Virus record (IMG/VR): IMGVR_UViG_3300045988_147287
DNA from: a virus
Taxonomy: Duplodnaviria > Heunggongvirae > Uroviricota > Caudoviricetes
Strand: one strand, 5' to 3'
Length of the DNA: 23,538 nt
A program made the position numbers and the translations under genes. The number at the start of each line of letters is the position of its first letter. Within the stretch, counting starts at the first letter, position 1. The notes under the pieces are model-generated. The model was not told where the DNA came from. It saw only the letters and a program-made list of their open reading frames with translations, and ran no database searches. Shown here piece by piece: positions 7,631 to 10,753 of the stretch.

Positions 7631-7854
7631 TGCGCGCTCCATTAACGACCATTACATAATACTATTAGCCTATGAATCGAGTCATGAGATGTTATCTTTA
7701 CGATTCAGGCGAGTGCTTTCGTTACGATGAGTTGGTTTAAGCACACTATCTGCACAAAAAATAATCTGTTGAAGCGATTCATCATTCCTAACTCTCTAGA
7801 GTCTTAAATAAAAATATGTAAAATGCGTAAAATTTTTTGAATTATGGATCAGCT

Positions 7855-8937
7855 ATGCTTGGAACTTCATCACAAAGAGCTATTTCAGTACAACATGTTG
7901 ATTTAAATGTAAAGTGTTGGGTCGTTAGACCTGGGATTAAGTATAGATATTTTGCAGACTTCCTTGAACGCAATATGGTTGCTACTGCTCACTTGGATAG
8001 GTTAAGTCCAGATCAAATTGACTTTAATGATGAAATTAACCATGAAAATATTAATCAAAAGGTTGATGGGTTAGATACTATTGGTTCAAGAAATATTCAT
8101 ACCCAAATTGAAAATTTCCTCATAGATATGCAGGTCGGTGATGTTGTTTTCACTTTGTCAGGTGATATGGTTGTTCCTGGAGTTATTGCATCTTCCGCGT
8201 ATTTTGAGCGTGAATGTTTAGGTAATAATGAAGGGTTTCATGTAAGACGTAGAGTCACATGGGGAGAGCCAGTTCGCAGACGAGAGATTCCATTAGCTCT
8301 TCAGAAATCGTTTACTGCATACCAGACCGTATTCTCTTTGGGCGGGAAGTCAGAAGAAGTACTGCATTGGTTAATGTCATTCTTTATAACGGATAATATT
8401 TTCTGTACTAGCTTAAGAGTCGAGCAAGCAGAAGCCATTCGGCATCATACTCTTAAGCAGCTGGCTGAGCTGGTCGATAGAGTGCAGGTACTTGCGCTAT
8501 TAATTGGCGAAGAGTTTGATGGCGAGTATACAAACGAAGTTGTTCAGTTTGAGATGGAAAGACTTTCTAATAATGGAGAGTTATCCTTGACTGCTCAACA
8601 AATGTTGATGTCTCCGGGGGATGTTTGGCTACAATTTAAAACAAATAATAGAAAGGCCGGAATTGCGTTTATGTTAATTATGGGGGCCATTTTTAATCAT
8701 GATGTAGCCTTCGCTTCAACGGTTGATAATCGTATAAGTGAGGAACTTCGATCTCATATTGAAGGGAAAAAAGAGGTTGCAATGGATGGATTAAACTTTG
8801 ATAGAGTTTCTCAAGTTCTAGAGTTGCGTTTAAAAAGACAAAATAGAGGCTTTGTTTCTGCTCGTCCAACGAACCGTGAGATCGGACAGGGGATCAATTT
8901 CCCTGAAGATGGTGATGCGAGGCATGCGAGTGACTAA
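7855..8937 (+). CDS. Hypothetical cargo protein, about 360 aa, soluble; first gene of a two-gene operon
   Basis: ORF-track start 7837 is TTG; first ATG at 7855 (start uncertain); AT-rich; stop TAA 8935-8937 is 2 nt before the next ATG; no recognised catalytic motif; no canonical Walker A (SLGGKS lacks the upstream G). Confidence 0.5.
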   Translation: MLGTSSQRAISVQHVDLNVKCWVVRPGIKYRYFADFLERNMVATAHLDRLSPDQIDFNDEINHENINQKVDGLDTIGSRNIHTQIENFLIDMQVGDVVFTLSGDMVVPGVIASSAYFERECLGNNEGFHVRRRVTWGEPVRRREIPLALQKSFTAYQTVFSLGGKSEEVLHWLMSFFITDNIFCTSLRVEQAEAIRHHTLKQLAELVDRVQVLALLIGEEFDGEYTNEVVQFEMERLSNNGELSLTAQQMLMSPGDVWLQFKTNNRKAGIAFMLIMGAIFNHDVAFASTVDNRISEELRSHIEGKKEVAMDGLNFDRVSQVLELRLKRQNRGFVSARPTNREIGQGINFPEDGDARHASD

Positions 8938-8939
8938 CT

Positions 8940-9629
8940 ATGAACTTTGAATTTGTAAAAGAACACTGGCTGATAATAGGCATGCTATTCATAGCATGTC
9001 TATTATTAATTTTAAAATTCAAAGATATTTACAGAACACACGATCAGTTTAATAACGTCGTGATGTCATTGTGCGCTGTTTTGACACTTGTGTGGGGAGG
9101 ATATACTTTTGATGTTTTGCACCAAAGGGATAAGGCAGAAGCTGATCTTATAGAGTTAAGAAATAGAATTAGAAATACAGAATCGACATTTTTTAATGTT
9201 GACGTTAATGTTGTTAAAATCGATGATGTGTTTTATATAAAGCCTATTGTGACTATTAGGAATAACAGTAATGAGCGAATTTATGTGAAGCTTAATAACA
9301 AGTCCCTTGCTGTTAGTCGTGTTTTATCGGCCGGTGCAAAGCAAGTCGCTACGGAAGTTTTTTATCCAAATTATTATGAGGAGTTGGCTGTTCTTAATGA
9401 AGAAAGTAGCTCGCAAGGAAAAGCTAAAAATATACCTTTATATGATATATCCGTTCCTATCTCTGCCGAAAGACGCTTGAACTATCTTGTTTCGACAAAA
9501 GAAAAAGGAATGTATTATGTAACATTTAGTGCTGAGGCAATGAACGAAGATGGCTCGCCTGTTTCTAAATACATAAATGGGAAAAAATCTATATGGTTTT
9601 CTTCTTCATATATTGAAGTTAAAGATTGA
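8940..9629 (+). CDS. Hypothetical membrane protein, 229 aa, two N-terminal TM helices; second gene of operon
   Basis: ATG at 8940 two nt after upstream stop; hydrophobic segments WLIIGMLFIACLLLILKF and VVMSLCAVLTLVWGGYTF at the N-terminus, then a soluble ~170-aa domain; AT-rich. Confidence 0.6.
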   Translation: MNFEFVKEHWLIIGMLFIACLLLILKFKDIYRTHDQFNNVVMSLCAVLTLVWGGYTFDVLHQRDKAEADLIELRNRIRNTESTFFNVDVNVVKIDDVFYIKPIVTIRNNSNERIYVKLNNKSLAVSRVLSAGAKQVATEVFYPNYYEELAVLNEESSSQGKAKNIPLYDISVPISAERRLNYLVSTKEKGMYYVTFSAEAMNEDGSPVSKYINGKKSIWFSSSYIEVKD

Positions 9630-9696
9630 ATTTCTATTAAACCATATAGTAATTGAAGGTGTTGGGGGTTAATCTTGCCTGGATTGCATAGAATCA

Positions 9697-9714
9697 CGCC
9701 GTCTGGAGACGGCG
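9697..9714. terminator. Hairpin between convergent cargo operon and Q (possible bidirectional terminator)
   Basis: CGCCGTC-TGGA-GACGGCG perfect 7-bp stem; no strong T-run on either side, so weak. Confidence 0.3.
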
Positions 9715-9724
9715 CTAAGGGTAC

Positions 9725-10753
9725 TTAATTAGATTCTAGACTGTAATCTTTAAAGCGGATGACCTCCTGACCGAGCCAGCCGTTTATCTCGCGGATCCTG
9801 TCCTGTAGCGGGATAAGCTCATTGCGGACAAAGACCTTTGCCACTTTCTCAATATCACCCAGCGACCCGACGTTCTCCGGCTTGCCGCCCATCAACTGAA
9901 AGGGGATGCGGTGCGCGTCCAGCAGGTCAGCGGCGCTGGCTTTTTTGATATTAAAAAAATCGTCCTTCGTTGCCACTTCACTGAGCGGGATAATTTTAAT
10001 GCCGTCGGCTTTCCCCTGCGGGGCATAGAGAAACAGATTTTTAAAGTTGTTGCGGCCTTTCGACTTGACCATGTTTTCGCGAAGCATTTCGATATCGTTG
10101 CGATCCTGCACGGCATCGGTGACATACATGATGTATCCGGCATGAGCGCCGTTTTCGTAATACTTGCGGCGGAACAGCGTGGCCGACTCATTCAGCCAGG
10201 CAGAGTTAAGGGCGCTGAGATATTCCGGCAGGCCGTACAGCTCCTGATTGATATCCGGCTCCAGCAGGTGAAACACGGAGCCGGGCGCGAAGGCTGTCGG
10301 CTCGTTGAAGGACGGCACCCACCAGTAAACATCCTCCTCCACGCCACGGCGGGTATATTTTGCCGGTGAGGTTTCCAGTCTGATGACCTTACCGGTGGTG
10401 CTGTAACGCTTTTCCAGAAACGCATTACCGAAAACCAGAAAATCCAGCACAAAGCGGCTGAAATCCTGCTGGGAAAGCCACGGATGCGGGATAAATGTCG
10501 AGGCCAGAATATTACGTTTGACGTAAATCGGTGAGCTGTGATGCACGGCAGCACGCAGGCTTTTTGCCAGACCGGTAAAGCTGACCGGTGGCTCATACCA
10601 TCTGCCGTTACTGATGCATTCGACGTAATCCAGAATGTCACGGCGGTCGAGTACCGGCACCGGCTCACCAAAGGTGAATGCCTCCATTTTCGGGGCGCTG
10701 GCGGTCATTGTTTTTGCCGCAGGTCGCGGTGTTTTCCCTTTTTTCTTGCTCAT
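9725..10753 (-). CDS. Q: Portal protein (P2 gpQ-like), 342 aa
   Basis: ATG at 10753 overlapping the P stop; size and position (cos-proximal, leftward, upstream partner of terminase P) match P2 Q. Confidence 0.9.
   Translation of the reverse strand: MSKKKGKTPRPAAKTMTASAPKMEAFTFGEPVPVLDRRDILDYVECISNGRWYEPPVSFTGLAKSLRAAVHHSSPIYVKRNILASTFIPHPWLSQQDFSRFVLDFLVFGNAFLEKRYSTTGKVIRLETSPAKYTRRGVEEDVYWWVPSFNEPTAFAPGSVFHLLEPDINQELYGLPEYLSALNSAWLNESATLFRRKYYENGAHAGYIMYVTDAVQDRNDIEMLRENMVKSKGRNNFKNLFLYAPQGKADGIKIIPLSEVATKDDFFNIKKASAADLLDAHRIPFQLMGGKPENVGSLGDIEKVAKVFVRNELIPLQDRIREINGWLGQEVIRFKDYSLESN

Follow-up and report, generated by a model that had tools for sequence, protein, structure and literature searches.

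We found that a two-gene, AT-rich cassette lies between the cohesive-end site (cos) and portal gene Q in a 23,538-nucleotide (nt) stretch of viral DNA (IMG/VR record IMGVR_UViG_3300045988_147287; hereafter the window, meaning the whole stretch that was analysed), and we read it, with a probability of roughly one in two, as a defence system in which a sensor of modified nucleotides controls a membrane effector. The window is identical (100%) to NZ_CP062910 of Escherichia coli strain Res13-Lact-EA06-22 and is a P2-like prophage. The cassette had been pointed out in a prediction made from the sequence alone (hereafter the original prediction), which proposed a horizontally acquired pair of sensor and membrane effector. 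Its position and gene calls are as follows (lengths of products in amino acids [aa]).

3838–6165: gene A (replication).
7577–7638: cos core conserved in the P2 family, with an exact GGCGAGGCGGGGAAAGCAC; the alignments to P2 and to prophage L012 break at 7638.
7639–9742 (+): variable (cargo) segment, 2,104 bp long, in place of 183 bp in P2 (positions 28–210), from local alignments to AF063097 and L012.
7639–7854 (+): AT-rich leader 5′ of gene 1.
7837–8937 (+): gene 1 as an open reading frame (ORF) with a TTG start, 366 aa, from the ORF list.
7855–8937 (+): gene 1 from its preferred ATG start, 360 aa, cytoplasmic; WP_024234794.1, DUF8426/PF28530 (RefSeq).
8940–9629 (+): gene 2, ATG start, membrane protein of 229 aa; WP_024234795.1, no family assigned.
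9697–9714: GC-rich hairpin in the gap from gene 2 to the Q stop codon, with a stem of 7–8 bp and a loop of 4 nt.
9725–10753 (−): portal gene Q, in convergent orientation to the cassette, with its final ~6 codons (9725–9742) in the variable segment.

The two same-strand ORFs, their TAA-CT-ATG junction (2 nt from the gene 1 stop to the gene 2 start) and their AT-richness against the backbone were all confirmed by the ORF list and base composition, with GC fractions of 0.39 in gene 1 and 0.34 in gene 2 compared with 0.53–0.57 in Q and P. The 366-aa product originally assigned to gene 1 stands as an ORF, and its start was refined to the ATG at 7855, which we prefer because of the RefSeq start, the lengths of the homologues and a GGA located 7–9 nt upstream. 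The placement between cos and Q, convergent with Q, also held. The 19-nt cohesive end of P2 is present as a single exact copy at 7612–7630, and phage records match the 7577–7638 region through cos only. In reference P2, cosL occupies positions 1–19 and Q positions 187–1221, and the terminator tQ is the sole annotated feature between them, which agrees with the original prediction that P2 has no protein gene there; tin/old are located on the opposite side of cos from Q. The AT-rich leader presumably contains the cassette's own promoter; a promoter scan gave no confident sigma-70 site on the (+) strand upstream of gene 1 (7639–7854), and an Rfam scan of the whole window returned zero structured RNA families. 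The hairpin at which the operon had been said to end is a real stem, with a folding energy of −14 to −15 kcal/mol (z of −2.2 and −3.5), and it lacks the features of a terminator: there is no T-tract, and the intrinsic terminator scan made no call there. It is unlike the tQ sequence of P2 and lies inside the variable segment.

The limits of that segment follow from homology to P2 and to the empty-slot E. coli prophage L012, which breaks off at 7638 (8 bp after the cohesive end) and resumes at 9743, so that the cargo comprises 7639–9742. This interval contains both genes, the hairpin and the last ~6 codons of Q, with an overall GC fraction of 0.37. In the P4 satellite hotspot sequences (Rousset et al., 2022, Table S2A), variable DNA likewise begins 6–8 bp after the cohesive end. 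The cargo junction of the window, 8 bp beyond the cohesive end, falls after TGCGCGCT (7631–7639), and P4 satellites break at the same position. Because the junction is common to P2 and P4, the Q-side slot seems to correspond in position to the P4 hotspot, and cargo exchange between P2 and P4 could be anchored on cos. At the other border, the C-terminal tail of Q is unlike that of P2, with homology only from 9743; this tail falls within the variable segment, which implies recombination breakpoints inside the Q coding sequence.

We then turned to the product of gene 1 (protein 1). Its structural model (46-sequence alignment; predicted local distance difference test [pLDDT], 84; predicted template modelling score, 0.81) comprises three parts, and the protein has no hydrophobic 19-mer scoring >1.6.

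7882–8334 (+), residues ~10–160: N-terminal PUA-like β-barrel (EVE/YTH/ASCH class), a predicted reader of modified bases.
8347–8880 (+), residues ~165–342: C-terminal α/β domain, superfamily-specific, delimited by secondary structure and pLDDT.
8881–8934 (+), residues 343–360: disordered acidic tail with the motif (D/E)FPEDGD and pLDDT <50.

The original prediction had reported no assignable motif in this product, a statement now superseded by the PUA-like, EVE/YTH-class fold that we assign to the N-terminal domain with moderate confidence. The model has the PUA-like β-barrel, and in Foldseek the top 33 matches were all YTH domains (probability ≤0.91, best E-value 0.023). As these YTH-type matches have weak E-values, we regard the fold as fairly secure and the ligand specificity of the reader domain only as something we infer. 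This domain has four residues that never vary in the superfamily (W22, D96, G109 and W136), and F36, F88, H46 and R25 are near-invariant (65 sequences, ~20% identity); W22 and W136, together with the near-invariant four, are candidate residues of an aromatic pocket that would hold a flipped or free modified base. Using PADLOC, we found that residues 26–212 match positions 3–185 of the 324-position PDC-S02 profile (E-value 2.5e-12), a partial match to a defence candidate. The C-terminal domain had no relative by any method used, including PDB and Pfam profiles; its S253 and G255 (in an 'MSPG' loop) are invariant, H171 is near-invariant, and residues 266–279 form a buried hydrophobic helix. In the tail, P350 and D352 are nearly invariant and the 'FP' is kept in the superfamily consensus; the tail may be a docking peptide.

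For protein 1, profile searches against Pfam, NCBIfam and PDB were all without an informative match, and for both proteins, Pfam, NCBIfam and PHROGs gave sub-threshold weak matches and the function-unknown phrog_10226 only. Scanning 65 superfamily members singly against Pfam revealed no recurrent family. PDB profile searches with three alignments yielded nothing beyond noise; the best match, to alpha-1-antitrypsin (E-value 0.14), was attributed to chance and rejected.

The model of the gene 2 product (protein 2; 38 sequences, pLDDT 86) begins with transmembrane (TM) helices and ends in a β-sandwich.

8967–9014 (+), residues 10–25: TM helix 1, strongly hydrophobic (Kyte-Doolittle ~3.0).
9054–9179 (+), residues 39–80: conserved TM helix (39–57) and charged juxtamembrane stalk (58–80), modelled as one long helix (34–80).
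9186–9620 (+), residues 83–227: immunoglobulin (Ig)-like/arrestin-like β-sandwich, probably periplasmic.

The earlier description of two N-terminal TM helices followed by a soluble domain was right about a membrane protein, for which Phobius also gave 2 TM (Rousset et al., 2022), and needs correction in that the soluble part is a β-sandwich that is probably periplasmic. TM helix 1 is found in the Enterobacterales/Pseudomonas subfamily and is missing in the distant partners (L014 and L015), which retain only the conserved TM helix, after an N-terminus rich in lysine and arginine. Helix 39–57 together with the charged stalk is the best-conserved part of the protein (conserved N39, C45, T49, W52, G53, Y55, T56, F57, D58, L60, Q62, K65 and A66). 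The net charge of the 2-TM subfamily is +1.3 in the inter-helix loop, −0.2 at the N-terminus and −2.1 after TM2, and the single-TM relatives carry 4–8 lysines or arginines at the N-terminus. Given this distribution of charge across the family and the positive-inside rule, the stalk and β-sandwich are predicted to be more likely periplasmic. The basic segment that protein 2 exposes to the cytoplasm could conceivably dock the acidic tail of protein 1 electrostatically.

Next, we asked how far the two genes travel together. Full-length homologues with 38–79% identity occur across many genera (48 clusters for protein 1 and 46 for protein 2), and 18 protein 1/protein 2 cluster pairs agree in the size of the longest member contig. 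A protein 2 homologue was found immediately 3′ of a protein 1 relative in six independent cases, namely in Serratia, Providencia, two Pseudomonas lineages and two metagenomic lineages (protein 2 match to an E-value of 8.5e-39), and in Pseudomonas both proteins show similar divergence (~42–44% identity). By sequence comparison, the two genes are thus one co-inherited, co-diverging module across Enterobacterales and Pseudomonas. All of its contexts are mobile elements: a P2 prophage, a site beside icd, a P4-type primase, an integrase, a resolvase, TraG/TraD of an integrative and conjugative element and a prophage lysis module. Members of the protein 1 family have so far come only from metagenomes, islands and prophages in chromosomes.

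An exhaustive profile search extended protein 1 to a superfamily of 896 representatives at 50% identity, 243 of them at an E-value of ≤1e-10; members are mainly 340–390 aa long and match over their full length. PDC-S02 profiles match every sampled member in the reader domain only, with the partial pattern repeated in 10 relatives, and some members also match a Type II restriction enzyme profile, again in the reader domain only. Far from the window's protein, the partner changes: in a prophage lysis region, the downstream gene encodes an unrelated protein of 191 aa that has two hydrophobic segments (L025, 4696–5271), beside a resolvase it encodes a soluble, Cys-rich protein of 305 aa (L021, 1585–2502), and one distant relative has no partner (L023, 226–1323). 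The RNSVMH (Rx4H) string of the soluble partner raised a HEPN reading, which had no Pfam support and a marginal Csx20 match (E-value 0.017), and HEPN was not confirmed. A conserved reader combined with interchangeable partners is the layout expected of a sensor with swappable effectors.

A previous study defined the P2 defence hotspot as the entire gpA–gpQ interval and found it rich in defence systems (Rousset et al., 2022). The cassette, between A and Q and adjoining cos, therefore sits within an already known hotspot. Its flanks match >2,100 genomes, and of 5,426 complete E. coli genomes, only 7 carry the cassette itself; the same pair occurs 16 times among 18,150 loci (Rousset et al., 2022). 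The sub-slot was surveyed with a synthetic query fusing cos directly to the Q 3′ end, which matched 2,155 genomes, 1,495 of them with cos and the Q 3′ end at P2-like spacing. Among 60 evenly spaced records, Q was present in 45, and the Q-side sub-slot was plainly empty in 41 of these, empty with a variant cos in 1 and occupied in 3 (~7%). The three occupants, all on the same strand as the cassette, are a retron Ec48 (reverse transcriptase plus membrane effector, in E. coli MB22), an AAA ATPase of 645 aa and a SIR2 protein of 824 aa. The Q-side sub-slot is a minority site, and its other known occupants are immune-type genes. The placement had been called unusual, which is accurate for the sub-slot (empty in P2 itself and in 42 of the 45 relatives sampled) and inaccurate for the gpA–gpQ hotspot, which was known. 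Comparison of the cos–Q interval across P2-like prophages also agreed with the original prediction, as the slot is variable and the cassette rare, hence cargo and not core, and acquisition of a two-gene operon by horizontal transfer at a P2-like cargo locus is supported.

The other side of cos is variable too. In the window, a third AT-rich cargo gene (GC fraction 0.38) on the (+) strand at 6525–7460, between A and cos, encodes a 311-aa protein (WP_033548893.1) at the position of P2 tin/old; it had no match in Pfam, NCBIfam, PHROGs or PADLOC. In L002 (NZ_CM192140), the cassette is 99% identical to that of the window, and this gene is replaced by other cargo, with a helix-turn-helix protein and a reverse transcriptase family protein at the A side of cos (3799–5035). 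The same cassette with different A-side cargo indicates that the two sides of cos assort independently. In L019 (NZ_CM129848), also a P2-like prophage, an AAA ATPase fills the cos–Q slot, and a DUF3850 protein (ASCH, PUA-like) is encoded directly 3′ of gene A (970–1422). PUA-like readers may be recurrent cargo in the gpA–gpQ hotspot.

The pair is not undescribed, as had been supposed. WP_024234794 and WP_024234795 are listed in Table S5A of Rousset et al. (2022), and in the curated Table S5B they form system #140, 'hypothetical + hypothetical', with no Pfam entry and '2 TM in protein 2'; system #140 is the identical protein pair at the same locus in P2-like E. coli prophages. We considered whether the pair plus a third hypothetical gene could be the validated system of 'three genes with no predicted domain' in that study, which was rejected because the peptides appear only in the catalogue table. 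Outside that supplement, DUF8426 and the two accessions are unmentioned in searchable papers. Rousset et al. (2022) keep both sides of cos together and give no domain assignment; new here are the reader fold, the wider family, the co-evolution of the partners and the sub-slot survey. The PUA-linked effectors named in published surveys are calcineurin, HEPN, TIR, DrHyd, HNH and McrB, with no such membrane protein among them, and the combination of a PUA-like reader with such a membrane partner is previously undescribed.

A defence role, as originally proposed, remains the most plausible reading, and the arrangement of a sensor plus a membrane effector is plausible. The argument for it draws on the hotspot location, the immune-type genes found in the same slot, the P4-like junction, the rarity of the cassette and its combination with different cargo across cos. 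It draws equally on the PDC-S02 and Type II restriction reader matches, the two tryptophans that are invariant at ~20% identity, the co-inherited pairing, the modularity at the edge of the family, the mobile-element contexts and the precedent of PUA-like sensors. The data show the gene structure, location and rarity of the cassette, the fold of the N-terminal domain, the co-inheritance of the pair and the exchange of partners in distant relatives; from these we infer defence, what the ligand is, which way the signal runs and that its output is membrane damage. In the scheme we favour, the PUA-like pocket of cytoplasmic protein 1 would bind a modified nucleobase that signals infection, either in hypermodified phage DNA (e.g., 5-hydroxymethylcytosine-type bases) or as a free modified mononucleotide released from phage-degraded host DNA, for which N6-methyl-dAMP (m6dAMP) is a precedent. 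The signal would be relayed to protein 2 in the inner membrane via the C-terminal domain, possibly with the acidic tail, and the conserved TM helix and stalk would then oligomerise or rearrange, compromise the membrane and abort infection.

Several results weigh against this reading. Support for the reader fold is moderate: no Foldseek match for the protein 1 fold reached an E-value of 0.001, and the EVE, YTH and ASCH models of Pfam matched neither the window protein nor any of the 65 superfamily members. The second hydrophobic segment of protein 2 (39–57) is borderline (Kyte-Doolittle 1.5), and its β-sandwich fold is generic and unlike known defence effectors. The probable periplasmic position of the sandwich complicates a simple sensor-to-pore model, as a periplasmic bulk would leave only a short basic cytoplasmic segment to contact protein 1. 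A tblastn search of 50,697 phage records and 72,556 plasmid records gave no homologue of protein 1, so phages do not commonly carry the family. The gpA–gpQ hotspot also includes non-defence cargo, i.e., partition systems (~1/4 of loci) and cytolethal distending toxin (Rousset et al., 2022). One PDC-S02 representative, with the reader domain alone in common, gave no protection against T4, T5 or T7. Finally, Tables S2A and S2B of Rousset et al. (2022), which cover the systems that were tested, contain no peptide strings of the pair, and the pair was therefore catalogued by those authors without testing.

A broader claim, that the cassette founds a new immune class in which a PUA-like reader is wired to a bitopic, mostly periplasmic membrane protein, with the ~900-cluster superfamily as a widespread sensor platform, is one we make only tentatively, at odds well below those of the defence reading itself. 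If it were true, a chemical danger signal in the cytoplasm, in the form of modified phage bases or of methylated nucleotides out of degraded host DNA, would be converted to membrane failure via an unseen effector fold, or an envelope event to the capture of modified phage DNA at entry, and the modularity of the protein 1 superfamily would be comparable to that of CBASS or retrons.

Among the alternatives, the one that survives best reverses the order of events, and we consider it unlikely though worth weighing. As in Kiwa or superinfection exclusion, periplasmic protein 2 would sense or obstruct DNA injection at the inner membrane and recruit protein 1 to the point of entry, where it would be the effector, its PUA-like domain binding incoming modified phage nucleic acid and blocking its use. 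The probable periplasmic bulk of protein 2 keeps this model alive, since the charge distribution puts the pre-TM segment in the cytoplasm and most of the protein outside in both subfamilies, and Ig-like β-sandwiches are typical extracytoplasmic binding modules. Partner-less relatives of protein 1 suggest some autonomous activity, and the acidic tail could serve to dock protein 1 on the basic segment of its partner. However, this topology is a prediction, PADLOC detects neither Kiwa nor any other known family of membrane sensors, the TM helix and stalk rather than the β-sandwich are best conserved in protein 2, and the soluble partner in L021 is more easily explained by effectors being interchangeable than by a sensor dedicated to the envelope.

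Still less probable is a mechanism resembling modification-dependent restriction, with the C-terminal domain of protein 1 as a novel nuclease, glycosylase or other nucleic-acid enzyme, which the PUA-like domain would guide to modified phage DNA or RNA, and protein 2 as its anchor or regulator. The stand-alone relatives leave room for protein 1 as the effector, the reader domain is common to a Type II restriction enzyme profile, and S253, G255 and near-invariant H171 are compatible with an active or binding site. Even so, the C-terminal domain has few invariant residues and no acidic/histidine cluster typical of metal-dependent nucleases, and strict long-range co-inheritance and co-divergence argue that the membrane partner is essential. 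A non-immune role, as a lysogenic-conversion or envelope-modifying factor or as a toxin-antitoxin-like addiction module stabilising the prophage, is similarly improbable: it would suit the partition and toxin cargo of the hotspot, the fact that only ~1/3 of the cloned hotspot systems were active on the panel used (Rousset et al., 2022), the inactivity of the sole tested PDC-S02 representative and a small membrane protein beside a cytoplasmic partner as a possible toxin-antitoxin pair, but a reader fold that also occurs in restriction enzymes and defence candidates points to conflict over nucleic acids, all three other sub-slot occupants are immune-type genes and the module occupies several unrelated mobile-element cargo positions.

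Elsewhere in the window, an AT-rich island (18980–20080, [−] strand; GC fraction 0.32–0.34) occupies the place that the nonessential orf30 has in P2, flanked by tail genes S and V. Its 366-aa product has a genuine RelA/SpoT nucleotidyltransferase domain (PF04607, 76.9 bits) and also matches the PADLOC candidate PDC-S33 (E-value 1.1e-16) and phrog_9640. The island may thus encode a toxin of the small alarmone synthetase type or a defence protein.

If the cassette is active, it would provide a function for DUF8426 and for a superfamily of ~900 clusters that is currently without one. The junction shared by P2 and P4 offers a handle on the exchange of immune cargo around a common packaging site, and the cassette, being small (~2 kb) with clear targets for point mutation, is easy to test.

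Lastly, we compared the cassette with known systems. Kiwa reportedly combines a membrane sensor, KwaA, with a DNA-binding effector, KwaB. A functional analogy to the cassette is possible, in that two genes would couple a membrane protein to a protein that binds nucleic acids in the cytoplasm; the two systems are unlike in gene order, TM-helix count and folds, and neither cassette protein had a PADLOC or Pfam match to KwaA (multi-TM) or KwaB (DUF4868). The cassette also lacks the composition of a CBASS Cap15-like system (2 N-terminal TM helices, a nucleotide-binding β-barrel and a CD-NTase). VcaM4I (EVE-HNH) and the N-terminal domains of McrB exemplify reader-type restriction, whereas the reader of the cassette is paired with a membrane protein instead, and no nuclease (HNH, PD-(D/E)xK or GIY-YIG) or McrB-type GTPase, as in Type IV restriction, was detected in the cassette. 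PDC-S02 is homologous to protein 1 over the N-terminal ~160–185 residues (relatives down to an E-value of 6.5e-21); it is a single-gene, unvalidated candidate, in contrast to our two-gene module, and full membership was rejected because the match covers about half of the profile and a conserved second gene is present.

The retron Ec48 of E. coli MB22 occupies the identical cos–Q slot in the same orientation and is built on the same logic, with a gene for a cytoplasmic sensor placed ahead of one for a small membrane effector (2-TM in Ec48), although the cassette has no reverse transcriptase domain and no msr/msd noncoding RNA (Rfam), and the proteins are unrelated. In Metis types I and II (MisA/MisB/MisC) and PUA-Calcineurin-CE-HAD, an N-terminal PUA-like ligand domain precedes a variable output, and the literature on both indicates that sensors of the PUA-like type govern a variety of effectors and that m6dAMP is among the ligands they can detect. 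The cassette resembles them in its N-terminal PUA-like domain and in being prophage or island cargo in E. coli. It differs in having no calcineurin-like phosphoesterase, HAD phosphatase or 3-TM MisC-like protein; its PUA-like domain is not relatable to theirs by sequence, and its output domain and membrane partner are unrelated. Identity with Metis was rejected on domain content, with no PF00149 or HAD match in either protein. Metis type II, like the cassette, ends in a membrane effector, and if active, the cassette would add a new output, a membrane protein whose fold arrangement has no assignment, to the PUA-like modified-nucleotide defence theme that Metis and PUA-Cal-HAD opened in 2025–2026.

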